A stretch of DNA of 62,314 nt, counting the filler, from Collodictyon triciliatum (Eukaryota): assembly GCA_043381765.1 (NCBI GenBank). It is 7 parts of 7 records of this genome, joined end to end, with 100 filler letters (N's around TTAATTAATTAA, not from the genome) between each part and the next. Parts side by side here need not be neighbours in the genome. Positions count along the whole stretch, not along the records: positions 9,676 to 19,244 come from JBHJMP010002960.1; 6 more parts are not named here. One strand, written 5' to 3'. Shown here piece by piece: positions 9,576 through 57,463 of the stretch. The notes below the pieces were generated by a model. The model worked only from the letters and a program-made list of their open reading frames with translations, searched no databases and had not been told where the DNA came from. The first letter of the stretch is position 1, and every line of letters starts with the position of its first letter. Both the position numbers and the translations under genes were made by a program.

Positions 9576-9675
9576 NNNNNNNNNNNNNNNNNNNNNNNNN
9601 NNNNNNNNNNNNNNNNNNNTTAATTAATTAANNNNNNNNNNNNNNNNNNNNNNNNNNNNNNNNNNNNNNNNNNNN
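9576..9675. other. Artificial scaffold linker (N44-TTAATTAATTAA-N44)
   Basis: 100-bp N spacer with a six-frame stop motif; the same linker recurs six times in the window. Confidence 0.98.
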
Positions 9676-9775
<100 letters not shown>

Positions 9776-10420
9776 GAGGGGAATAAAAAACGTATCGAGC
9801 TTTAGCCATCGACCCACGGGTAGCAAGATTATTATGAATATAGTGCTCAGTATTAGTTGCTCTGATTCATTCATCCACTTCTTTCTTTTCTTTTTTTCTT
9901 TTTCTTCTTTCTCTTTTTTTCTTTTTTTGTTTTTCTTTTTTTGTTTTTCTTTTTTCTTTCTCTTTTCTTTTTTCTTTCTCTTTTCTTTTTTATTCGGTCT
10001 CATTCAGCCTGTAAATGGATAAACTTTATTACATAGGTTGTGACGAACTCGGTTTTATCCCTTTCGAGGCACAACACTTTTTATACAACGAAAGTGTACC
10101 TATATGCATAGCAATTTATTGCACAGACAGCCATCGAATTAGATCTGGATTGACAAAAGCAGGAGCTTTGATGAATCCAAGAAGCAACCTGAATAATATA
10201 ATAGTATAATTCATATATAATAAGGTTAAAACTACTTATTAATCTCATTCTCTTCATGTAATCAATTTTTTTTTATTTTTCATTTATGCAATTTTTTTTA
10301 TTCTTCCTTTCAACTTTTGTGCAGGACCGTGGGATTTTTCATTTATGCAATATTATATTTAAAATTCCAAGATTACAAACAAGCCCTTCCCTTGGCCCAG
10401 TGAAAACCCACCCCATAAAC

Positions 10421-11720
10421 CTGCCACCAAAAATGGACTATAATCCATTTCCATCATATCATTCCCAGCGACACTGTAAGTGGTATCGAATATGACGTCA
10501 AAGTCAATCCAAATAAGTACACTCCATCTCTGATTTACATGAATCGCATTTATGAGGACATTGAAACCAAACTGTTTCAACCAATCTCTATAAGAACTGC
10601 CAATATACCATGTCATATTACTCTAGATACTGCATGTTTGATAGATTTATTGGTATCAACTAGAAAAAAATCATTAATGAAGAATATATCAGGATGCAAA
10701 GAGACCCTATGGGACGAGTTCTTTGAAATGAAGAAAAGAGTCCTTCATCAAAGAGACTACAATTTTAAATACATGATACAAACAGACGGCTTGGCGGTGT
10801 CATTATTGTATGAAAAGAAAGGTATTCCTAATTCAAAAATCCAATAAATTAAAAAAAACCAAAGATTATGTTTATATATATATACTTTCCGAAGAGCATT
10901 TATCTTTATTAGCGAAAAAAATAGCTAGAGTTAGATTGGACGCAGGCAAGTATAATTTGGTTTACACGGTGAGTGAGACAGGTAAGAAATTACGTTACAC
11001 GACACACCAAAGAAGACATGATAGAAAATCTCTTAAAAATCACAAAATACTCTTGCGCGAGAAAAAGAAAGAAAAGTACAATGTTTCAGCGATATACATG
11101 GCAACAGGTTTACAAAGTGTTGTTTCTTTTGGTCTCAGGACTTTTGAAGAGAATCAGCAGTTTGAGACATCAAGAGTGTCTTTAATTGATTTAGAGACGA
11201 AACTGAGTAAACATAATTCATGCACGGTCGATTATGAAAAATTCGAAAATATGTAACTATAAAATCAAGTTACCAGATCTAACTATTCAGATTTTATGAG
11301 CAAGTAACTTTTCGAAAGATGAGATGGAGACAGTATGATAATACAAAAAGAAGTGGACAATTATTTATGGGCCGAATCGAAAAGACATTTGGCAAGGATG
11401 TTGTACTGGCGTATGGAGACTGGAGCAGAAAATCTCCGATGAAACATTCTATGGCAACAATCGGAAGACTATTACGAAAAAAAAATACTATCCAAACGTT
11501 TTGAAATAGTTATTGAAGATGAATTTAGAACCTCCAAGATGTGCTGCAACTGCGAAAAAGAGCTGGAATATATGAAACCGAAAGGAAATTCAAAAACGTG
11601 TTTAGATATCTCATATGTAAAGAATGCAATCGCTCAGAAAGCAAACAAAGTATATTCATGGCAAGGGACTTTAACAGCGCTTATAATATACTCAACCAAG
11701 TTCTTTTAATCCTTCAAAAA
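10421..11720 (+). pseudogene. Fanzor1-like (TnpB-derived) RNA-guided endonuclease, 5'-truncated and frameshifted
   Basis: Joined frames read YDVKVNPNKY...KLFQPISIRTANIPCHITLDT...IQTDGLAVSLL...RLDAGKYNLVY (RuvC-I D at 10939)...RYTTHQRR...LETKLSKHNSCT...FRKMRW...FGKDVVLAYGDWS...EDEFRTSKMCCNC (rearranged RuvC-II E at 11521)...CKEC...RDFNSAYNIL (RuvC-III D at 11667). About four frameshifts and an in-frame TAA at 11280-11282. Confidence 0.88.
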
Positions 11721-11754
11721 ATACATTCACCTTATTCTAAAAAACAAGAAGTGT

Positions 11755-11863
11755 TGGGTCTTTCCTGGCAGCCTTCACCACTACACGACCCCTTTGTGAA
11801 AAAAGTGGTGAGACCTTGGATACTAGCGAACCAGGTTTGCCAATCGAAAGATTGGTATAACCC
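11755..11863 (+). ncRNA. Putative Fanzor omegaRNA scaffold (structured 3' region of the element)
   Basis: Nested stems: GGTC 11757-60/GACC 11812-15; TCACCACT 11775-82/AGTGGTGA 11804-11; CACGA/TTGTG 11784-98; hairpin GCCAATC-GAAA-GATTGGT 11839-56 extended by GGTT/AACC. It lies immediately 3' of RuvC-III, as expected for TnpB/Fanzor. Boundaries uncertain. Confidence 0.6.
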
Positions 11864-12217
11864 TTTTAGTATTCATATAAATAAGAAACTAATAATTCCA
11901 TTCCGTTTGGACAGGCGATTTGCAACGGGTGGCAAAATGCGTGACAGCTTTCCCAAGCGCAACACAGCCGAAAGCGATGCACAATTCTGACAAAAACAAA
12001 AAAAAACAAAAACCATAACAAAACCAAACAAAAAAGCCAAAAAGCCAAAAAACCAAAAACCCAATAAAAAGCCAAAAAACCAAAAACCCAATAAAAACAA
12101 AACAAAACAAAACAAAACAAAACAAAACAATAAACAAAAACAAAACAAAGCAAAAAAACAAAAAAACAAACAAACAAACAAACAAACAACAGCCCAGCGA
12201 GCATCCCCGAGCAAGAG

Positions 12218-13685
12218 ATGCATTCTACCGCGGCCCACCGCCGGCTGCCCGCCCTCACGCGCCAGCGCCATCCCACAAAACCCGCTGCATCACCCACGCT
12301 GCACAGCCAAACACTCGTCGCACCAGACTTTGACGCAGCACAGCGACTCTCCATTTTGCGGCCCACACCCTCCGAGTTCCGTGCTTCAGGCCCACCAAAC
12401 AAACCCGGCCGCCTGAGAACAAACCCCACACATCCACCAAACTCAGCAAGTCCCACAAAGCCTGCAAATCCACCCAATCCCACAAAGCCTGCGAATCCAT
12501 CTAATCCCACAAAGCCTACGAATCCATCCCGCCTTCCGGCCTCGTCAGCTCGCTCGCAGAGGCTGCCAGCGGCAAACCCTGCATCGCATCGCATCAGCAT
12601 CCCAAACACACCAAAATCTGCACGACACAACCGCATTCTGGCCAACGTTTACGGCGTCTCTTTGGACGAGCCAAAGCCCGCCCGCTCGCAGCTCAGCTCA
12701 CGCACAAACTCGGCCCGCATTACCACAAGGATGGGCCTGAGTTCGCGGACCGCGGTACATCCGTCCGACCATGCGGACAGACGGTGCGTCCAGAAAACAT
12801 CGGAAGGGTCGTTGGCATCCGGGCGAATGCAGACGCGGCGCGATTTGCCTGCGCTTCCTTCGATGTCGTCGCGAGTCGCCCCAAAGTCCCAGCGGGATGG
12901 GCTGGTGCGGCCTGCTCTACTTGCTACCCAAACACGCGGGAGAAAGCTGGATCCGATACGGTCCCCGCCCCGTGCAAAGTACGTCTCTGATTTCATCTCC
13001 GCCAGGCGCAACTACGAGCATCAGCAGCATCGGGCCAGAGAAGGCGCTGCTTCGCTGCCGCAGTTGCAAGCTCGTGAAGAGAGGCACACACAGAAGGAAC
13101 TGCCGGGTCAGACAGCAGACAAGAACGAAGATGGTAGAGCAGGTCTGTTGCTGAGTCAAGCATCCAACTCGCTCGCTACAGGGAATGGCCCCTTGGTGTG
13201 TGTCGACATGGAGCGCACTGGAGAGCAGCAGATGGCAAAAACAACAGAAAGTATGAACTACTGCTCGCTTGTTGAATCGGTGGCGAATGACACAGATACA
13301 GAGAATGATGACACGGATGCGTTTGATGATGGAAATGATTCACAAAGTAAATATACCCATAATTGCTGTATACCTGTGTTTACGATGCTATTGGATGCCA
13401 TTCTTTATGTCTATAGTGTACATTTTTCTTGATATGTGAATTTATTAGTTCTATCGATCATTTCTCCATCCATGAATTGTTTAACCATATGTATCGTACA
13501 AACTTGCGTACTATTATATAGTTGGATCACAGAAAATGAAAGAGCACTCCTGGTGGCGTGATTTTATTTACCAAGCTCAGTGTGAACGTGGTATTTTTTT
13601 TCTTATGTTCACTATGCATGTTTAGCATTATGAATTGATACCACTTTATTACCTTAGTACTTTATAATTTTATTTTTATTTATTT

Positions 13686-13749
<64 letters not shown>

Positions 13750-16700
13750 TTTGTTCTTCCTTTCAATTTGTGTAAGATGATGGGGGTTGGTAGTACTTTT
13801 AATGCTTGTGACAAACAAAGAAGCAAAATATGTATATAAATGAAACCGAAAATGAAAGTGAAGAGAGAAAAAATAAGGGAAAATGCAACCACATTAAAAA
13901 ATAATAATTTGAACTATAGGCCGAGCCCTCATGGAAACATACTGTGGTACTTCAAATAGTAGCCTCCTCAATGCCTTAACCAGAAAAAATCGCTCGAGAA
14001 TGAGAAAGAATCCACAGGTTCACTTTTTTCTTATCCTTTTAAATCGGGGGAGTTGAGAAAATTTTAGTGCCAAAAAAAATGTTCGTTGGAACATGTGCGT
14101 AATTCGAAATGTTTTTGTTCGCGACATTGTATGTAAACAGCTCGTATTTCTTCTTTCTTTTCTCTTTAGTGTTCATGAGTTTCTTCGGTTTTTAATCGGT
14201 GATAATATCCATTCAATATCTAGGAAGAGAAAACAAAAGTGAACTATCGGCAAAGATATATTCGGTTTTTGGAAACAATCGCACACGAGTTCAAGAATCG
14301 TGAAGTTAATGTGGAGAAAGAGTCACAAAGTCTTACTGTAGAGAAAAAGAAGCTCAGAGAAAAGGTGAACAATCATCTCGAACGAAAGACTGCTTCACTT
14401 ATGATTCCTTTTTCGTTTACTATCCCTTCTCAGCATGCAAATGTTCAAAACAAAATATAACAGTCCATTCCGAACACTGTCAATTTTTTCTCACATCTCG
14501 CTAAAATCTACTAATTCGAAAACGTTCATACATATATTCCTCACTTTTGGGTAATTACAAAGTTCACTTATCATGATTTCCATCAGATGGGATTAGACAA
14601 AGTATCGAGTCGGTTTCAAAATATTCCGAAGGCACCGCCCAGAGAAGCTCTTGTCAGTGAAGAATTACAACAAAAATTGACGAATGAGGAGAGAGCTCGA
14701 ATTAATTATAGAATCATTCTGAGGCAGCAGAAGTATTTTTTTTTATCTTATAAAGTTTATGTGTACCAAGTAGAGGCAATCCTTTTAATTATATAAAATG
14801 TCTATAGCAAAAAATAAAAAAAATAATCGCCACATAAAGTCTTTTTTCTTTCTATATCTCTTGCACATAACTGAATAATTCACCCTAGGTATATGCTTGG
14901 AGTTTACCAAAATGGCTTGACAGCAAACGAAAAGTCAGAGTCTCCTTCCCCAACGAAAGAGTTTGTTGATGATACAGACCTTGTAAAATTTACGGCTCAG
15001 ATGTCGAATTTAGAGCCATTTGCCCCTGGTATGAAACCGAATAGTAGCAATAACTATAACAATAATAATCTTATATGAATCATCATACAGTACATGCATG
15101 TGATACCTCCTTCATGACATTTTTAGGGTCACATTCCACTTCTTTTTTTTTTAAAAAAAAAAACTTCCTAATTTTAAATGAGCCAATTTTAGATGAAAAT
15201 ATGCAGACTCAAAGACCGACAACTTCACTTCTTTCAGAAGACATGGTGTACTGGCGAAATCGGCATCAACTTGGTGATAACCTGAAAGTATTTTGACCGA
15301 TTCATTTTCGAGGCTTCTCAAATAACCTTTATAAGCAACACACTCTCATATTATTAAAAAAAGAAAAATCATTTTCGCCTTGATATTTTATTATGCAATT
15401 TAGTTCTCATTTATACTTGAGCAAAACTTAAAATATATGAGTAATAATAATAATAATAATATCCAAATAGATTTTTATCATATGTGGTACTTATGAAGAC
15501 ATTAGGAATGAGCTTCTTCGACGAGGGTGAAAATTATTTTAGTATTTCTTATATTTGCGTCTTTATTGATTTACTTTTTGATTTTTAATTTTTTAATTTT
15601 TTAATACCCCAATTCATGTTTTGAACATTCAACTTTGTTCTATTTACCTTTATCTTTCCCTTATTTCTTATTATTATTCACTTTTTTGTTGTTATTTACT
15701 CTACTTACCTGTATTCCACTCTTCTCTTTCATCGTTCTTGGAAAATACCTATTTTTTCTGTAATAATGATTTTCTCTCCAGATGGGTTGAAAATCCTGAC
15801 AACACCAGCTTTGTTTTTGACTTCAAATGGACAACCTACGCAAGTGATATTAACTTTCGAACGCTGTCGCGCCGTCAGATGGTTAATCACTTTGAGAACG
15901 TGGATATCTTGACAACCAAAGTATGTCTTCATATTTTTTTGAAAGCAATATGTGAATACTAGCACTTTGAAAAAAATATGAAACCTGTGTGTGTGGGGGG
16001 GAGGGGGTTTAAGTATTTGTATGAAAAATATGAAGCTCATTCCTTTCTATTTCTTTCTCTCCCCTGACACACAGCTGGGGCTATGTAAATCGTTGAGGCA
16101 AGTTAGTTGGTTAGAAAGTGAAGACTTTAATTCTTTTTATCCACGCTGCTACGACTTGAGTGATTCTGGCGATTTGAAAGAATTTATCAGTTTGTATAAA
16201 ATTGGAAAATCGTATATTTAAGATTACATATCTAAATATTCCTTCATTAATCCACGTTGGGAAAACATGCATGAGTAATATCATTTTGTTAATTGAAAAA
16301 ATTACCATTTCCTTTCTCCTATTCCCCTTCTTGTTTTGACAGACGATTACAGAACTACAATCGCATCTAATTTAATCAAGCTCTTTGTAAAATCGCGAGG
16401 AGATATCGACTGTGTTATTAAATTCGATCGGAGCATATCTGAAAGCCACAGTGAGTTATTTGTATGTTCCATAGGTCAAAGTGTAATAACTTAGCCTAGC
16501 TTTGCACTCGAAACAAAGACAAAGCCAAGAAGAATTCCTTTAACATAAATATGCCCTTTCCGCTTCCACAAAGTACAAAGTGAATTGAGAAAATAAAAAA
16601 ATGCTTCAAATTTTCTCTCAGTTTTGATATCCTCTAAACCATTACCCATGAAATATCGTTCTACAGTGAAGTCAACTCGAGGTCTAAAGATGAAGCGATA

Positions 16701-19129
16701 TCTCATTTCTCTTGCCTGCCGTGGGTGCGAATATGAAGTCGAGCGGAAAAGTGCGGACGAGTTATTTCCAGAGGTTTTTATTATTATTATTATTATGATT
16801 ATTATTAGTATTAGTATTATTATTATTTTATTATTATTATTATTTTATTATTATTATTATCATTATTATTATTGATATCCAAAAACAAGATTTTTCTATT
16901 ATTTTTGCACTGCCAATATCTACACTTGTTTTATATGGGCGTATCAGATATTGACTTTTAAATAGATTCCATTTTTACGTAATGTAATTCTTATGTACTT
17001 TCTTTTAAATATTTTCAATTCTGTTTGAATATTCTGTACTTGAAGATTTATAGTATGAACTGCTCAATGGAGGTGCTTTTCTTTTTATTTTTGTTATTAT
17101 TATTCGAAAATAATCGTTAGGATTTCGAATTTGATCTTGGGAAAGGGAACATATTGCCGTTGTCTGAAAAGGAATGGGACTCCCTCGTGTGTCTGTCATT
17201 GAAAGGATGGATAATAACAAATGAATTGTTTCAATCATTAACTGTCGACCAAGAAGTAGTGCGTACTCCATCTCGACGAGGTAGAACAACGTCTCGTCCA
17301 AACACGTCGCGTGATGACTTTGAGGATTCCATCACCAGTGAACGTGAGCTTTACGTCAGGAGTCTTGAGTTGTATGAAATACTTTCATGTCAGAAGCAGT
17401 TTGAAATGGATGGAACTCATGGAATCTGGGTTGTGAAACCTTCAGGGTCGTCCAAGGGATTTGGTGAAAAAAAAATTATTTTATTATTATTGTTATGAAT
17501 GGAAATTCAACACTATGTGACTTACTTTTTTCTTCCACTAAGATTCTTATATAATATGAGTCTAATCCAATTTTACATTCATGGTATTTTACTTTACCTC
17601 AACGTAGGTGTTCGATGTGCCACAGATCTGAAGACGATTTTAGTGGGGCGGAATGAAAATGCGCGTGTTGTGCAAAAATATATCGAGAATCCATGTCTTA
17701 TCCGTGGGCGAAAGTTCGATATTCGACAGTGGGTTTTGGTGACATCGTGGGATCCGCTTGTAGTGTGGTTTTACGAGGATGCCGTTCTTCGCTTTGCAAG
17801 CGAGTTATTTTCCTTCGACGAACCAGACAACAAGTATGGACAAAAAGTTTCTTTGAACGATTCCAATTATGTCCTCAAAGTACATTAAAGAAATGACTAT
17901 ACACCGTCGCAAATATAAAAAAAACTGATTTTTCTTCCCCCTCATTTGCCAAAGGTTCGTACATCTGTGCAATTATACAATACAAAAGCAGAGCGAGAAA
18001 GTTGGACCGCATGGCGATATCGAATTATCATGGACAACAGACGAATACAAAGCTTATCTTCGGTATGCCTTGACTTAGACACAACATCTCTCCTTTTTTT
18101 TTTTTATCAAGAAATTGTATTTAGGAGAATAATGCTACCCTCAATTTTTTTTTTGTTTGAAAGTCAATAGTTAGGAAAACATCAATAGTACTCATACCAC
18201 TATTTTATCTCCAGTGAGACGAAAGGAGATGACTCTGTATGGGAAACTTTCACCAAGCCAGCCATGAAGGAGATCGTCACACTTGCATTCCGCTCATGCC
18301 AGCCTTTCATCCGTGCACGACAGGCAATTATTACATCAATATCCGTACCTCTTTCGACATATGCACACATAAATCATCAATCAAAATATTAAATTAATTT
18401 TTTAAAATAAATAAATTGAATCACAAAAAATCACAACTACAGGGTTCATGTGAGCTGTATGGTGTGGACTTTATAGTGGACGAGAGTGGAAGGCCATGGA
18501 TTATCGAGGTGAACTCGTCGCCTGGTTTGCGTGCTTCCCCCACGTTGGCAGGTTCCATGTTGAGAGATCTGGTCAAAGGCAAGTAACTCTTTTTCATAAA
18601 ATTCACCTGTAATTTCAATCCCCTTTCAATCCCACAAAACTAACCCATTGTCCTTTTGCAGTCGTGGTTGACATGAATCCAGCCGGACTCGCAGATGGGC
18701 TGCCCAAGCCAGTTGTATCGGCACCACAGACAAAGAGTGCCATGTCCCTCAGTCAGAGCGGAGGTAATACCGAATTACAATCGACTGTGGAAAGTATCCC
18801 TGTATCGCCCATGCAAGACATTGAGAATGGGCGCAGTCCGGACTCTGGGCGATGGTCCATGATATTCAAAGAGGAGGTATTGCTTCGCTTTGTTTTGACT
18901 GTATTTGACTTCATTTCACTTGATGTGACGTGATGTAATGCGATGTGACGGGATTACACTTTATCTGAGTTGCCTCAATTATGCAGAGACACGAGGTTTC
19001 CAGCATGGCCGATGCAGTGGGGATAATGATAAGCGGCCACAGAATAACGATCGAGAAGCCCCGGGTAGCATCACACTCACCCGCTCGTACGGACTCGTCT
19101 CCACAAAAGAGAAATCCGACATCGGTTGT
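12218..19129 (+). CDS. Tubulin-tyrosine ligase-like protein, TTLL3/TTLL8 (glycylase)-type, with long low-complexity N-terminus (3' end missing)
   Basis: QMVNHFENVDILTTK/LGLCKSLRQVSWLESEDFNSFYPRCYDL, WVVKPSGSSKGFG, VVQKYIENPCLIRGRKFDIRQWVLVT, VHLCNYTIQK, ELYGVDFIVDESGRPWIIEVNSSPG. Confidence 0.88.
12451..12529 (+). repeat. 27-bp coding tandem repeat x3 (PTKPANP.N)
   Basis: tcccacaaagcctgc(a/g)aatcca(c/t)c(c/t)aa-like unit repeated three times in the first TTLL exon. Confidence 0.85.
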
Positions 19130-19244
19130 GTGAGTAGAGGGGTAAAGATGAGTGAAATCAAAAAAAAAAAAAAAAAAAAAAAAAAAGGGGAGGGAGAAAG
19201 GGGGGGGAAAAGAAGGGGAAAGAAAAAAAGGTGAGAATGAGGGG

Positions 19245-19344
19245 NNNNNNNNNNNNNNNNNNNNNNNNNNNNNNNNNNNNNNNNNNNNTTAATTAATTAA
19301 NNNNNNNNNNNNNNNNNNNNNNNNNNNNNNNNNNNNNNNNNNNN
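19245..19344. other. Artificial scaffold linker
   Basis: N-TTAATTAATTAA-N, 100 bp. Confidence 0.98.
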
Positions 19345-41977: not shown

Positions 41978-47444
<5,467 letters not shown>

Positions 47445-47718: not shown

Positions 47719-47818
47719 NNNNNNNNNNNNNNNNNNNNNNNNNNNNNNNNNNNNNNNNNNNNTTAATTAATTAANNNNNNNNNNNNNNNNNNNNNNNNNN
47801 NNNNNNNNNNNNNNNNNN
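47719..47818. other. Artificial scaffold linker
   Basis: N-TTAATTAATTAA-N, 100 bp. Confidence 0.98.
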
Positions 47819-47997: not shown

Positions 47998-50900
47998 CTA
48001 TTTTGGATGGCCATTTCGACCCTGAGCTTTGCTTTGTGAAACCGAGTATTGTAGCTGCCGGCGCTGAAAATAGTTATCTGCTGTAATGTCACCTCGTTGT
48101 GCACTTAACTTAGATGATTTCGGGTTGTAGGTTTGGATTGTCGCAACCTTCGACCTCCATGGGCCTTCTGGGGTGGGATGGTTGGGTGATTTAGCATCTT
48201 CGGCTCGAGTTTCTGCGTCCGCTCGTTCCTTTTTCTTTTGAAGGAATTTCTGGGCATTCTTGAAAGACTTTTGCGCCTTTTCATCTCCCGGAAATTGTAC
48301 TAATGAACCCCTGTAGCTCGCGAGGTAGTGAGCAGCGTATAATTCTAAAAGCTCACCTTCTTTCGCTTTAGATGGCATGCCTGTGTTTTGGTATAATACG
48401 GGAACATAATCCATATCCAAGCACCCAACAATCCGAATCTTATCTTTGTCAAGGGTATTTTCCACCATCACCAAGAAATATTTTCCCTTTGAAAGCATAT
48501 CAGAATTGTCTGAAAAGCAAGAAATCTCGTTTCTAGAAATCTTAAAGCGTCCATCCCACGCACCGGCGCATCCTTTGATCTCAAAGTAACAGAAAGTATT
48601 CATAGAGTCACTAAATAGGCCCAGCGTATCGCAGATGCAAAAGTCATAACCTTTAGAATTATCAACAGTCGTTCCTTTTGACGGAAAAAATAAGAGCCTG
48701 GAAGAGGAAACCCAGTTATCCAACGGATTGTAAGATACATATTTTGATTTTAGGAACTTATGAAACAATTCTTCAGCTTGGATGCCAGATTCCTGAATTG
48801 AACGAATAAATTAATTAATAAATTAAATTATGATTTAAAAAAAAAAAGAGTCATATCTTAAAATAAGCCCTTGGCCTTAAAATAGTTGCGAAAAGAAACA
48901 GATGAGAAATAGTTATTGATTACTTCGTCTCCTTTGTAAAGAAGCACACGACTAATGTCGTCTACAGGTACGCCTTTAATATCTATGATGGAATCGGTGG
49001 ATAAGTCTCTAAAGGCAACAGTCTCTGAATTTTCGGGACATTCTCTTGTGGTAGGTGCTACACCCGCGCTGGTTGGGCTGATTTCTTCAGACTCCGATTC
49101 TTTTTTATCCTCGTTGTGTTTGAAAGCCTTCGACTGTATTGTTTCTAATACAGCGTTTGTCTCAGTGGATGAATTATCCTCCACTCCTTTATTCCCACCC
49201 AATACGCTAGCGGATTCACCTGTTGCTTTCGTGACCTTCGACTTAGATGTGCGAGGCTCCTGTTTTATATTTTTAAGTTCTAATTAAATCAAAGAATTTT
49301 TAAAATTCTTACCCTGCTAGACCTTTATTTCTAAAAGTAATAAAAATAAAAGTAATAAAAATAAAAGTTTCTGCTTTGATTTCGTACAGGTCTATTTTTT
49401 CCGTCACTGCCTTGCGAGTTGTATTTTGGTTCCGTGTTGAGTTCCTGCAATGGTATTTCGGTGAGGTCTGGTTCCTCCTCTATCAAACTAATCATGTTAT
49501 GTATTTCTAGCTCGGCTTCCTTGAAAATTTCTGCTGTGCTTCGCTCAAAGTTACTGTCACCGGAATCTTCACTAGATACATCCATTCTCATCCATTTTGA
49601 TTCTAGCTCGAAGCTTTCACTTGAAAAAACAACATTTTGCAACGATATTGTCTAGATCAAATAGTTTGAGTATTATGAATTATAATAAAAAAAAATAATC
49701 AGAGTTAAATACAAATGAAGTAGAAAGAAAAACTGTATTAATGAGATAAATTACCTCAATAGGAATTTCTTCAAATTCTCCTTCGAACATGCAATTTTCT
49801 TTGATTAAAGTATATGAAATTTCTTTGGCCTTTGTAGATTCAAATCCTTTGCTTATCAGATATCTAAATACTGCCCGTCTGGCTATAATTTCTTTTCTGG
49901 TTTTATCGTGAATAAATCCTATGGCCAGAACTATGATATCTGAAAAAATGAAGTAGGGGAGCTTACATTCAAAGTTCGAGGCAGTAAGTAACGGTTTTGA
50001 GTGATGTGATAATAAGTTTTGTACAATCACTGAGCTACTGATATAATTGCATGTGTAGATTGACGCATTTTCCAGTCTAGAAAGAATCCTTAGGCGACGG
50101 GATAAATTTTTTTCATGCCTTTCTGAAGCCTTTAAAGGGTGTGTTATCATGAGTTCCAACTCTTCAAGATAAGGAATTTTCATTAATCCAACAATGTAAG
50201 GGTAATTCTTGGACAGGCCATAATGAAGCACATGTTGAATATTGTTAAAGCTAGCTGACTCTTTCGCCCATCTCATTAAAGGAACGCATATCGAAGCCCT
50301 TGTAGTTTCCTTCCTCCAAGAAATAGTGATAGAATCGTCGCATAAGTACAGTGGTATGATTTGGCATAGGTCCGATTTTGTTGCTCCCCTAATTTCTAGC
50401 TTACTACCACAAAATCGGCTTGATGTCTCTCCACCATGATATTTGATCCACTTTTTGATGTTTCTATATACTTCTTTATATGTAGGGTAAATTGATTGTA
50501 AATCTTGTTGTTGATCTGCTAATACATCAAAAGCTTCCTCAGCCATATTCTCTCTTGATTGAGATGAATTTGATTCACTTATTACTTTTTCAATCATTAA
50601 TCGGGTCTGCAATTCAGCATTGAAACAGCTAATTCCTTTTTTACCCTCGAAAGAAATTCCCTCTACAATTTTCTCAATTAGTCCATTCATGTATTCATAG
50701 ACATGAAAAAAGAGAATTCTCCCATGCGGCTTTAAAAAAGCTGGGTTATCACCTCCATAAGAGCAAAACAATGAAAGGTCGTTGTGCATGCCGTGCAAAG
50801 CAACTATGCAATCACTTATCGTTGGTTTGCTCTTACTGCCCAAGATATTAAGGGTGCTTGTTAGTTTCTCATAAGGGTCATCGCGCCTACTTGGTATTAA

Positions 50901-53900
50901 GGTTTTCGATGTATACTTGCATATAGTTGTGAGCGCCTCAGAGTAATCGACAGACCGTGTTATGATATTTTTCAATCGAACAAAGTCTCCTCCATGTTTG
51001 TAAGGAACATCTGGTACGAATATTTCGATATTGCCTATTTCAAGAAAATCTCCTTTATTGCAAGTTCCTGAAGAGGTGACAAAGGCTTGTAATTGAGACA
51101 GCCAATCGATGTATTTCTTTTGGTCTTGTACGTTTCTATCTCTTAGTGATCTGAATATTTTTGAATATAATCCAACTGATTTATCGCACTGAATACCCAT
51201 CAATTTAGCCATATTCTCAATCTTTCTGGGCACTTGAACAGACCAAATGTCTTCATTACATAGAGCTTTTGATACAGCCTCTTCAATTGGCAGAAATATT
51301 GGCTCCTCTCCTTCCAAAGTAACTCTGATGAGTTGCTTTCTCATCCAATATTTTGCACTCGTTTCCATTTTTTGTAACACGTCCTCTAGATCTTCATGAA
51401 ATGGTGTCATAATCTCTAGAGCTGGTATTTTCTGAGGTTCAGGAAGAGGAGTTATAAAGTAAGGTAACTTAACTCCTATCTTAAGTAAGAAAGTCTCCCA
51501 CTTAATGCATTCATTTATATCAATATCTGTATCCGGATTGATCCAAAATGGAGAACAAAATTCTCGAAACTTAGCGTATCCTCTGTTTTGAATCGAAAGA
51601 GACAAAAAAGTGGGTAAAGAGGTCATTTCTGCTGGATTACATTTTGTCCAGCCTAATTTCAGTTTTGTTTTGCTCGAAACTGGAACCAGGATACGAGAAG
51701 TAAAATCACTGTTTCTGGATTGTATTAAAGCGGATACATTTTGATACAGGGGAAAATTCTCCCTTAGAAATTTGAGCTGGCTGCAAATACAACTCGTTTT
51801 TATATTTTCTTTTTTATCAAATATATCCATATGGTGGTAGACTATGTGCTCGACAACTGGTTTTTTCTCCAATCTAATTCCAATCATATCTAAAATGGCT
51901 CTCTCGTCTGATGCACCGTCATCAACCACCAGTATTGTCTCTTCAGAAAACAACAAGACAGAAGCACATTCTATAACATCAGAATCTCTAAGTTTTATCG
52001 ATGACTCGTTTGTCACGTAAACTCTACTTATTCCATGGAGCGATATTCGATCTTCCGTGAAAACTAATTGTCCCTCCGATTGTTGAAGGGTGATAAACAA
52101 AGGATAATTCTTCAAAGATTCCATGAAATCCAGGGGCTTGTTTCTCGATTCTTCCAGAATCAAAGAAAACAATATTTTCCACCACTCTTTATTACTCTTT
52201 TGTTTCTTTAATAGTCCCTGTCGTTTTCCACTTGGTTTGTGTTGTAAACATTCAAGTACATGAATTACACTTAGTTCAGGAAGGCACTGCAGTAGGTCTT
52301 TAGGTATCACTTTGACATCCTCTCCAGGTATAGGCTTGTCGTGATACAGAATGATTTTTTTGATATCTTTTAATTGAGACGGTTTAATAAGTGATGCTAT
52401 TGTTTCACTGTATTGGTGAGGTGAGTACACATCTTTACTTAATAAATTGGACGCGTTTTTCTTGTACCAATCTTTTATTTCCAACACAAATTCTTTCCAC
52501 CAAGGTGACATTTCACTTGTAGTTGACGGGAAATAACTACTGAAGTTTTCTTTAAGATAATCGCTGCGTTCGAGGGACAGTATGAACAAGTTATAAACTT
52601 CATTCCTAATGAATTTATTAAACTCGTTTTCTCTCACCGATTCTCTGTTCGTCACTAAAATCCAATCAGATTGTATGGCAAAAGGCAATCCTATATCCAT
52701 AACAGGCAAGAAAGCGAATATTGGATTGGATCTTTTTTCTGACTTTGAAGTTGAATTCTTTGGGAACATCAAAGATACCACTGCCCTCTTACTTCCCGAT
52801 CTTGATGGCTCTGAATCTACTATATAAGAGGGTAAGTCAACATGGCGACTAACAAAAAGAAATTCTGAATTCTTTTTGTGGGTTATTTTCAGTTTGATAT
52901 CTTCTACAGCTTCCTGAATTACTATATCTTTGAATAGTAATTTTGCAACTTCAGAACTATCACCGGCATCTGAATTTATGGGCAATACTACTTCAAATTG
53001 TGAACTGGATAAAAAAGAATACTTTGCTACAAATTCATGTGACTGAATCTCTATTGTGTGTAACTTATTCAAAAATACCAGAGTCAGGGGGTCAAATTTC
53101 TGCTTAATTGAATCAAAAAAATCCGATCTCTTGAAGCGTTCTTTTAATGGTAAAAAAATGATTGTATTCTCTGGATATTGAGACAGAATGTCGTCCAACT
53201 CTGGATTTAATGAATCAAGCCAGTGTGGTGTTACATATGAATCTACTTCATCTTTTCCTTTCTTAAAGCAGAATCTCCAGTCTCTCGATACGATGGTTGG
53301 ATTTTCAGTAATTGCAAAGACTGACTTGAAACCGAGTCCTTTCTGACCAATCGAAATTCCTCCTTCTTTTGTACTTTGTGAAAGGCTGCAGAGAGATAAA
53401 ACATTTTTCGCAGAGAATCCTTTTTCATTGTTGATGAATGCGATATAGTCATGTCTGAACCTCAATACAAGCCCGGGTTTGATGTCGTATTCGTACTCGT
53501 TGTCGTCACAATTTTGAATTATTTCGTTTATGAAATGTGCAGGTGAGGAATACAGCTCACTTCCTAGGTGCTTTAGAGAACCACATACTGATTTCCTCAT
53601 ATTTCTAAGCATGACACGCCGTTTCTGTATTCTTACAGTAAAATCCTTTGCTAAATGCAAGCTTGAAGAAACATTTATCTCAGACATTACTCTAGTTAAC
53701 TCAGAGTCTTCAAAGTCATCGCAGTCAAATTCATTTTTTGCGTCAGAGACGTCTGGGAATTTTAATGAAATTTGATCAGGAGAATTACTACGTAAAATTT
53801 CCAAATCCAATCTCCTGTAACTTTTCAGGGATTCCTCAACTTCCTTTATCTTTTCCTCCGCTTGTATTCTCATGTGCACTTCATTTGAGTAAATTTCATT

Positions 53901-56900
53901 CGACTTGCTTAGTTTTTTCTTGAGAAGTTCGATTTCTTTTTTCAGCCCATCAATTTCAGATTCCTTAGCTTCGATTTCTGACTTGTTTTCCTTAATAATA
54001 TCATTCTTCAGCTCTAGGTTTCGATTGGCTTCCTCTAGAGAGAGAGTTAGATATTCTTCATTACATTCCCGCGTTTCTTTGGCATATGATTTATTTCCTT
54101 TAAACCACGCCGTTTGATGTGTTTTTGTCGTCTTTTTTGCTTCTGTACCAAGAAACTGTAGTCTAGATCGGAAGACACGATTTCTAAAATGTAGGTATCG
54201 AAGGTCGTGTTCATTTTTCTCCAGTGATGCTGAATTCGCATCTTCAACACTTATATTGTCATTTTCTTCTTTCTCAATCAATGATACATTTTGGACTCTT
54301 TTTAATTGAATAATGTTGGAACTTTTCTTCGGAATTTTATCAATACTGGGGAGTATATCATCGTCAAATTCACCGCTATCGTGCCCATCATCACTATCAG
54401 AAGTCTCTGATGATGAATCATCCTCGGTATCTTTGAATCTATTATCATTAATGTGTAGTAATCCTACGTAAAGTTCACTAGGAAAAATGGTTTTTGCGAT
54501 AAATTCTCTGGCAATTAACTCTTTCTTAAAATCTAGTACGCTGTTCATAAGAGTATGTCTGAACTTGCGAATGAGAGCTTTTGATTCAAAAGGGCCTACA
54601 GATATTAGGGATACTAAAAGTTTGCATGCAAATAATGAAAAAGCCACTCTAATTTTTTTAATCATAATTTTGTAATCTTGTACAAGCGTCACGGAATAGG
54701 CTCTAAGTCTGATGAGTTCTTCTATATTAGATTCTCCCTGAGACGCTATTTGGTCCGTATATCCATTTTCTTCACTCTCGTTTGACTCTTTGCTTTCTTC
54801 TTCATCTCTACTATCTTCGGATATTTTTTGTGATTGGTTCCCAATATCTGTTTCCATATTTTCATCATCACTATCTCCATCAAGTCTTCGTGCTCTTGGT
54901 ATTTCATCACGCGTCAATATATCATGACTCCACATATCTTCAGCGTCTTCGGTCTGAGGTACTCTATACATACACTCGTAACCAGATAATGTTGAGCGTT
55001 GTATTACGTTAAAGCATAGTGTGGTGTCCTCGGCTCCAAAAAATATGCAAGTATGTGGGTAAGTTGAAAAAAGCTTGCTTATGGTGGCTAAATTAATCTT
55101 TTTCTTTGACTCAAATCCAAAAAAGGAAAACAAGACTTCGCTGATGGAGGATGACATGGACCTTGATTGATGTGAATTTGTATTGAATCTGTCAATCATT
55201 TCCAGGAAAAATACCATATAGCGAGAAAGGCCCTTCCATATCGATTCTATTAGAGATATTTCTTTGTGAGGGCGCTGAGTGTATTTACTGCGAAAAAAAT
55301 AGTTGTTTAACTCAATCATCTTTTTTGTATATGTGACACTATCAGCGTCCATTATCATTTCGACAAAAACGAGTCCTTGCATACTAAACACGTGGGGTAA
55401 ATTTGGAGCAAAAAGCTGATATATTAACTTATAAAGGGCATTCGAACTGGAAAATGCCATATGTCGAAAAATTGGATGAGATAAAATTTCTCTTAGGCAC
55501 CAACACAGATCCAAAATGTTAGATATCAGAGTGTCTTTTGTTGGGTCCTCACTCCCACCAAGAAATTCTTGTTCTTTTTTTGGAACGATTCTTGTATGCT
55601 TTGATAAAGTCCATCTGCTGATTCCTCCCTCAAGAAATTGGTTGGAACTTTTTTTAAGCTCCTCTTCCGAAGGAAAGTTCGCAATAAATTCCTGTCAATA
55701 AACGAATTTTTACGTTAGTATGTAATATTGTAATGTACGCGAAGATATTGCGATATACGAGAGATAGTATATCATGCGCCTATATTTTTTATGACTACAA
55801 AGTTACCTCGACATTTTTCATGACACACTCGCAAATGTCATCAACGACTTGAATATGGTTGTTTAATATAATATATCTCAATTTGTTTTTGGAATCCTTC
55901 GGTAGTCGCTGGAATATTTTTTCAAAATAATTGACAAACTCCTCAGTATAAATATTCCAGCACGGGGCATCCGGTTTAATGGCATAACTGATTGTTTGAG
56001 GTAAATTGTTCGATATATTTTCATGTCGATAAATGTGTGTCGACGTTATCAGATCGAAATTTCTAGGAACTCCAAAATCCGGTTTTCTTTTGAGAGTTTT
56101 CATTTGATGCGGGAAAAAGGTTGGTATAATCTTTGACTTGACAATATTCTTGACTAAATCGAAAAAAGGAATAAAAAATTCGTCAATTTTAGAAAACATA
56201 TCAGTATTCCATTGTAGTAACTTGCCCAAAAATTTTTCGTCGTAGAGGGTTGCTGTTTCAATTAGATGGACGTCTTTTTTAAGTTCAATCAATTTCCCGT
56301 AGAATTTATCCAAAAAGAAACTAATACTTTTCAAGTGTATTTTTGCATTCATGGTGTGCTCTGAGCGCTTTAGGACACTGAGGCGTGAATCAACAGACTT
56401 CGATAAAATGGTATGCATGGGTACCAAGACAAGGTCACTTATGGCCAAGACTCGAGGTTGTATGAAACAGCGATCACTCATCAAAATGATGTACCGGTGC
56501 GGAAGCTAGAGGAGATTTACACAGAATGAGCAAAAGTAGAATAGAAACTAGTGGTTCGATTAGAACTAACAACTGCTTTTGAAATATTTTGAGTATTTTT
56601 TTGATAAAATAGTGTCTATTGCCCCACTTTTCCATATTAGTTCTTTTAGAAATGGTCAATTCAAACTTTACATATAAACATAAATTATTACATACCAAGG
56701 TCTCGTCGTTGTAAGAGAAATTACTATATAATATAAGATCCAGCAGTTCGGTGTAAAAAGCATCAAAGTCGGAGAAGGTTGGTGAGTTGGAATCTCTTTC
56801 TGTTTCATGGATAAATCTCTGAACCTCACGCTCCCACACGTCCGAAAATATGCTTGTCTCATGTAAATCGGGGGAAACTGAATAACTAGTCTCATTTTGA

Positions 56901-57363: not shown

Positions 57364-57463
57364 NNNNNNNNNNNNNNNNNNNNNNNNNNNNNNNNNNNNN
57401 NNNNNNNTTAATTAATTAANNNNNNNNNNNNNNNNNNNNNNNNNNNNNNNNNNNNNNNNNNNN
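57364..57463. other. Artificial scaffold linker
   Basis: N-TTAATTAATTAA-N, 100 bp. Confidence 0.98.

Follow-up and report, generated by a model that had tools for sequence, protein, structure and literature searches.

The right end of a decayed Fanzor1-like gene in Collodictyon triciliatum carries, on the strand of the gene, a compact and stably folding module (11752-11862), which is probably the omegaRNA-scaffold region of the Fanzor1 family to which this gene belongs, preserved in a dead copy. We put the probability of this reading at roughly 0.6. It is based on the position and strand of the module, on the coincidence of the end of the structure with the estimated boundary of the repeat family, on a recurrent joint at its start, on its stability and raised G+C content, and on the precedent of related elements. 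Here, in a copy that is frameshifted and cut on its 5' side, the module is most likely a relic. All positions refer to the window, i.e. the whole stretch of 62,314 bases that was analyzed, and the main features are the following.

9576-9675, 19245-19344, 28904-29003, 38062-38161, 47719-47818 and 57364-57463: linkers between the pieces of the window
10419-11709, plus strand: Fanzor1-like pseudogene, 5'-truncated, split into four or more frame pieces
10419-10847, 10777-11256, 11283-11504 and 11443-11709, plus strand: frame pieces of the pseudogene, the last going on in frame 0 from about 11596
Within these frame pieces, plus strand: RuvC-I RLDAGKYNLVY, the FRKMRWRQY...AYGDWS block, RuvC-II EDEFRTSK, the CCNC...CKEC finger and RuvC-III
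11664-11690, plus strand: RuvC-III motif RDFNSAYNI, placed by alignment to P0001 (a 639-aa metagenome protein) and L002 (a 694-aa giant-virus ORF)
11752-11862, plus strand: right-end module, putative omegaRNA scaffold, delimited by joints at 11752, the drop in contig depth and fold statistics
11775-11811, plus strand: 5' domain, an 8-bp stem around a 5-bp hairpin
11775-11782 with 11804-11811, plus strand: 8-bp stem, TCACCACT/AGTGGTGA, pair probability 0.90-1.00
11784-11788 with 11794-11798, plus strand: nested 5-bp hairpin, CACGA/TTGTG, one G-U pair, probability 0.84-0.97
11834-11862, plus strand: terminal stem-loop with a 12-bp stem (one bulge) and GAAA as its loop, GGTTTGCCAATC-GAAA-GATTGGTA-T-AACC
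11834-11837 (GGTT), 11839-11845 (GCCAATC), 11846-11849 (GAAA), 11850-11856 (GATTGGT) and 11859-11862 (AACC), plus strand: segments of the terminal stem-loop
11858-11866, no strand: approximate right boundary of the repeat family, from contig depth in runs X1, X2 and X4

The window consists of seven pieces joined by six linkers of the form N44-TTAATTAATTAA-N44, which stop all six frames. As the pieces are separate, only 9676-19244 is true context of the module, and neighbours across linkers are not genomic neighbours. Base composition is A+T-rich with G+C-rich islands, and two further runs of N (27355-27887 and 30978-31317) have the appearance of ordinary gaps. About 130 nt past the right boundary lies a long low-complexity tract rich in A and C (11991-12180; units AAAAC, AAACAAAC and CCAAAAA), and behind this tract a G+C-rich block (12180-13430) contains a 432-codon open frame that had no Pfam match. 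The other pieces contain eukaryote-type genes, including a CCCH finger and a RyR domain, and an uninterrupted 2,004-codon frame with a sacsin domain (49680-55694, minus strand) lies beside a frame with a NO VEIN C-terminal domain (47998-48810).

All three RuvC motifs of the pseudogene, as well as the CxxC...CxxC finger between the second and the third, align with P0001 and the L002 ORF. When the window was searched with L002 (tblastn), residues 256-676 were matched at 38-40% identity, and because the alignment begins at residue 256, the window copy has lost some 255 residues at the N-terminus. The identity of P0001 with one window fragment is 40%. In a Pfam test for the Cas12f1-like_TNB / OrfB zinc ribbon, a window fragment scored 18.2 bits against Cas12f1-like_TNB (E 0.0027), below the cut-off of 26.3, and P0001 scored above the cut-off with 28.8 bits. 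No intact ORF is present in the window copy, which is interrupted by in-frame stops and no fewer than four frame changes and has lost its 5' part. Since this part and everything upstream of it are missing, the copy has no evident promoter of its own. At 11080-11185 it has about 35 codons more than P0001 and L002, between the NHKILLREKK and ETKLSK blocks, which could be an insertion or a former intron. Searches for longer proteins with 10777-11256 gave one match, P0001 at 40%, and no full-length protein of the window's family; the same search with 11283-11504 gave no match. A search for near-relative proteins with 11529-11990 returned a single match, P0002, a broken 136-aa NCBI fragment.

A sequence-only reading of this DNA had described a multi-stem structure at 11755-11863, and every stem and motif that it named could be located there. 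The 8-bp stem, the nested hairpin and the GAAA stem-loop were stable in the predicted fold (0.76-1.00), whereas the proposed outer helix, GGTC 11757-60 with GACC 11812-15, had a probability of 0.01. Within the terminal stem-loop, the 7-bp GAAA hairpin had a pair probability of 0.97 and the GGUU/AACC closing helix one of 0.76-0.90; a U38-A57 pair joins the two, generating a 12-bp stem with one bulge. The energy of this stem-loop is -13.4 kcal/mol and its end coincides with the estimated repeat boundary. The same reading had suggested a pseudoknot between CCTGG (11764-68) and CCAGG (11831-35). These segments are complementary, but their pairing had a probability of 0.03-0.04, a value that counts nested CCUGG/CCAGG pairing, true pseudoknots being outside this scoring. 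Because CCAGG shares G11834-35 with the GGTT helix, the full pseudoknot and this helix are mutually exclusive. An alternative fold of CTTGG (11815-19) with CCAGG (11831-35) was likewise poorly supported (0.01-0.07).

The segment 11755-11863 folded on the plus strand with -35.3 kcal/mol, compared with -24.4 +/- 3.2 kcal/mol for dinucleotide-shuffled sequences (z -3.43, with none of 200 shuffles as stable), in agreement with the expectation that it would fold better than shuffled DNA. The minus strand gave z -2.15, and five of 200 shuffles were equal or better; thus the strand of the gene is the one that folds better, and two G-U pairs occur within its stable helices. The same comparison had been proposed for the wider segment 11700-11950, which was unremarkable (z -1.58, 13 of 200 shuffles as good). 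G+C content is 0.49 in the module versus 0.345 across 10001-12000. As a control with natural DNA, we also compared the site with GC-matched 109-nt windows of the same record (step 15, both strands, G+C within 4 points, site excluded), and 7 of 1,228 (0.57%) folded equally well or better, i.e. the fold of the site is unusual but not unique. Rfam had no match at the site, and a tRNA scan found no tRNA.

To delimit the element, contigs of four public runs were mapped onto 10400-11990 at a likeness of at least 80%. The window's Fanzor element is a high-copy repeat, with 254 and 262 contigs from runs X1 and X2 (small runs, organisms A and B), 7 from a lake metagenome and 58 from a subsurface metagenome. 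Altogether 16 public runs matched the stretch, each with a small share (0.05-0.12), and no RNA run is on record among these 16. Contig cover was unbroken from about 10430 and fell to near zero in the bin 11858-11911. The right boundary was calculated as a simple proportion from the depth bins 11804-57 and 11858-11911, and is a rough estimate rather than a mapped end. On the left, loose contig ends at 10429-10433 indicate that other copies extend further in this direction.

These data place the module where the gene ends on its 3' side, in the orientation of the gene and finishing at the estimated right boundary of the repeat, which is the omegaRNA-like placement that had been proposed. The stretch 11755-11863 had been described as lying directly behind RuvC-III; it does lie behind this motif on the same strand, with a gap of 65 nt from the end of the motif at 11690, and the module, counted from 11752, starts 62 nt behind it. 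The final frame is indeed open to 11990 as had been read, but because the repeat family stops near 11860, the open part past about 11860 is not Fanzor. At the other end of the module, the match to the window resumes at precisely 11752 in four contigs with internal skips or replacements, and in three others it begins at this position. Such joints are the pattern expected of ORF-less derivatives that retain the end module. In three other contigs, approximately 11714-11800 is skipped or replaced, and therefore the 5' domain is not retained in every copy. A 4-letter indel at 11477 separates most contigs from the window, and the frame continues across 11596 in three contigs as well as in P0002, which is broken elsewhere. 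At least two frame breaks of the window are thus not common to other copies, and therefore less decayed copies exist. Among the 40 of 432 base differences listed, none was inside 11728-11863, in a list that favours well-covered sites and is no measure of conservation.

Searches for further copies were carried out at several levels. No second copy was found within the window (blastn, word sizes 11 and 7), and neither an inverted copy of the right end nor the left end was present in the piece 9676-19244. The exact 22-nt hairpin pattern had no matches in viral contigs and none in genome contigs. A two-arm pattern of the 8-bp stem matched at least 120 stretches of viral contigs, and among the matches listed the only likeness was to the coding core of the giant-virus relatives described below. 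A metagenome scan with protein patterns gave 96 stretches, including nine relatives (48-63% identity in the best segment) and no member of the window's own family.

The nearest intact relatives found were Fanzor1 genes on giant-virus contigs and on matching metagenome contigs, with a protein identity of 38-40%. In these elements the last ~150 nt up to the element end are strongly conserved. RNAalifold applied to seven relatives gave 42 pairs, of which 16 were changed on both sides, and a covariance model built from these seven sequences (R1) found 11 more distant giant-virus 3' ends (E 4e-6 to 6e-14). When the 18 distinct relatives were aligned by fitting to the model, a procedure that favours the structure, 86.8% of cells were paired, compared with 73.7% in shuffled and 41-53% in slid alignments, and 28 of 42 pairs were changed on both sides, a count that none of 500 shuffles attained. 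The model-fitted alignment is needed for this result: a plain MAFFT alignment of the 18 sequences gave only five pairs in RNAalifold.

The arrangement in the relatives is the same as in the window. Between RuvC-III and the right end there are 173-223 nt in 15 of 18 relatives (those with the motif within the available DNA) and about 172 nt in the window. In these 15 relatives, the stop codon lies 66-162 nt past RuvC-III; among the relatives, it lies 37-157 nt before the element end. Since the distance from motif to end holds while the stop shifts, the constraint is on RNA or DNA and not on protein. In two relatives (L008:810-954 and L009:468-612), the Fanzor frame stops 66 nt past RuvC-III, about 75 nt before the stop of their closest kin. 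The RNA structure is kept behind this early stop, and therefore bases that code for protein in some members are non-coding in other members. It should be noted that, as the stretch encodes a C-terminal tail in some relatives, constraint on the protein could account for some of any conservation. A 15-nt core pattern of the relatives' RNA matched at least 120 stretches; among the matches listed, four were in the relatives' family, and all of these were duplicate contigs.

The terminal repeat of the relatives, GGCGTTTTAAATGTYCAARGG, corresponds to the 3' strands of the last two helices, and an inner segment pairs with it. At least 134 stretches of giant-virus contigs (IMG/VR loci L134-L267) contain this 21-nt sequence with TGTAAAA behind it, mostly without an adjoining Fanzor end and often as inverted pairs a few hundred bases apart (e.g. 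L145, L161, L174 and L188), with very diverse interiors. It has the look of a highly successful terminal repeat, carried by small giant-virus elements that have no genes. One contig (L013:1688-1734, minus strand) also contains a lone right-end remnant, which consists of the last 33-36 nt of the RNA and the terminal repeat and lies, in inverted orientation, roughly 0.9 kb upstream of the point at which the RNA of a Fanzor gene on the same contig ends.

By eye, the window module resembles the right-end RNA of these relatives in layout. In both, a hairpin is nested in an outer stem, an A-rich joiner ends in AGU (GAGAAAGU vs AAAAAAGU), and a linker of about 16 nt is followed by a terminal helix that lies at the element end and encloses a hairpin. 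The spacing between RuvC-III and the right end is also similar, in addition to the protein identity given above. Unlike the relatives, the window has neither the conserved AUCAGUUGAUUUUAC core nor the terminal repeat ending ...GGCGTTTTAAATGTYCAARGGTGTAAAA, and its family is present in high copy in a eukaryotic genome. The giant-virus elements with the repeat ...GGCGTTTTAAATGTYCAARGGTGTAAAA have a putative likeness to the Mariner-type PGv-1 group described by Bao and Jurka 2013 (PMC3627910). In its +2 frame, the window encodes FTTTRPLCEKSGETLD..., which resembles the tails FTPTGEKVGQSVD of the relatives. However, both the likeness in layout and that of the +2-frame tail are analogies, and homology is not detectable.

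Searches with models of the relatives' RNA were consistent with this. An nhmmer profile, R1 and a broader model, R2 (filters off, E up to 10), found nothing at the site when applied to the whole window; the best whole-window matches of the RNA models fell elsewhere with E values of 1.6 or more, which is noise. One nhmmer match (43146-43174) was dismissed as weak and located in a low-complexity A-rich tract of a different piece. In a targeted search of 211 nt (11690-11900), the best match of both R1 and R2 was 11773-11811, with 2.1 and 4.5 bits and E values of about 0.1, which is not significant. This match puts the window 5' domain on the P1/P2 part of the models, on the expected strand and in the expected place. 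A by-eye alignment of the 5' domain to P1/P2 of the relatives was rejected as evidence, given that the models yield an E value of about 0.1. An equivalent of the relatives' stem A was sought upstream at 11727-11756, where the fold of 11700-11950 had only a 4-bp helix. As the models of the relatives' RNA miss the window module, the case rests on position, strand, boundary and stability.

This arrangement can be compared with known omegaRNA systems. According to Saito et al. 2023 (PMC10432273), the 3' inverted-repeat region is the source of Fanzor omegaRNAs, which can overlap with the ORF. Those of SpuFz1, GtFz1 and PpFz1 are, like the window module, located where the gene ends on its 3' side, share its strand and extend into the right end of the element (PMC10432273, PMC11423790); they have few stem-loops, the last of which is beside the presumed guide (Saito et al. 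2023, PMC10432273; Xu et al. 2024, PMC11423790), and they may overlap the ORF end, as the RNA of GtFz1 does by 17 aa (PMC10432273, PMC11423790). Their first stem-loop has 7 bp, whereas the first stable stem of the window module has 8 bp and a nested hairpin, a comparison made by the published descriptions only. The omegaRNA of TnpB (ISDra2 type) is also a right-end-derived guide RNA that overlaps the 3' end of the gene. It differs from the window module in that a pseudoknot is unsupported in the latter, which moreover has no Rfam family match. Saito et al. report the SpuFz1 omegaRNA to be without a pseudoknot, and TnpB and Cas12 scaffolds to have one (PMC10432273).

If the module is the scaffold region of the family, the equivalent of 11752-11862 would in working members be transcribed on the strand of the gene, across its 3' end. 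The transcript would fold into an omegaRNA scaffold of two parts, the 5' domain and the terminal GAAA-capped stem-loop, which would abut the element end, and the guide, if any, would be read from flanking DNA from about 11863. Such an RNA would presumably be bound by the Fanzor of the family and guide it.

It is conceivable, although in our view unlikely, that the window copy itself is a live "ghost" guide, i.e. that it is transcribed and that an intact Fanzor belonging to its family takes up the scaffold and the flanking guide in trans. ORF-less "ghost" omegaRNA loci are known in Spizellomyces punctatus, and Saito et al. 2023 (PMC10432273) report that their 75-nt RNAs supported SpuFz1 editing in trans. 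The ghost Spu-1 loci resemble the window copy in having an omegaRNA-like right end without a working ORF in cis, and copies of the window's family also retain the end module where the upstream part is absent or replaced, with joints at 11752. The core helices of the window copy have no visible defect, and the less decayed copies noted above, which lack at least two of its frameshifts (in P0002, the one at 11596), point to members in better condition. However, each ghost locus is a short but complete element that has both inverted repeats and keeps the omegaRNA region but not the ORF, whereas the copy in the window is a 5'-cut, decayed gene whose left end is missing. The loss of about 255 N-terminal codons and of everything upstream, hence of an evident promoter, also argues against this possibility, as does the fact that the protein searches found no intact nuclease of the family, the close relative P0002 also being broken.

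A second explanation, which we regard as similarly improbable, is that the module is a feature of DNA or of coding sequence only, namely a subterminal repeat recognised by a transposase and/or ancestral C-terminal codons, and has no RNA role. The identity of the relatives' terminal inverted repeat with the 3' strands of the last two helices, and its occurrence in so many stretches mostly without an adjoining Fanzor end, are consistent with this explanation, and so is the resemblance of the window's +2 frame to their C-terminal tails. On the other hand, the relatives keep the structure whether it is coding or wholly past the stop, and the two sides of its pairs change together. In the window the plus strand folds better than the minus strand, and the roles of transposon end and omegaRNA are compatible in known systems. 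A functionless chance fold in a locally G+C-richer patch is the least likely explanation, for although seven GC-matched windows fold equally well, the 251-nt context is unremarkable and the likeness to the relatives' RNA is non-significant, the site was set beforehand by the gene end, and the structure ends at the repeat boundary and starts at the recurrent joint at 11752.

The preferred reading thus remains that of an omegaRNA-scaffold region preserved in a dead copy. A broader scenario, which is speculative and rather doubtful, is that this is a eukaryotic high-copy Fanzor1 family sister to the giant-virus elements, in which a separable RNA module in gene-less or gene-dead copies would guide the remaining nucleases in trans, and in which the scaffold would have drifted while its two-domain layout was kept over C-terminal codons.

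As it stands, the window contains one more decayed Fanzor copy, with an RNA end that is plausible but putative, and relics of this kind are already known. If the module is a true scaffold, however, it would define the guide RNA for a branch of Fanzor1 that is as yet uncharacterised and connects the genome of a eukaryotic host with elements of giant viruses, and the many gene-less or broken copies of this family would be a natural place to ask about ghost guides acting in trans.
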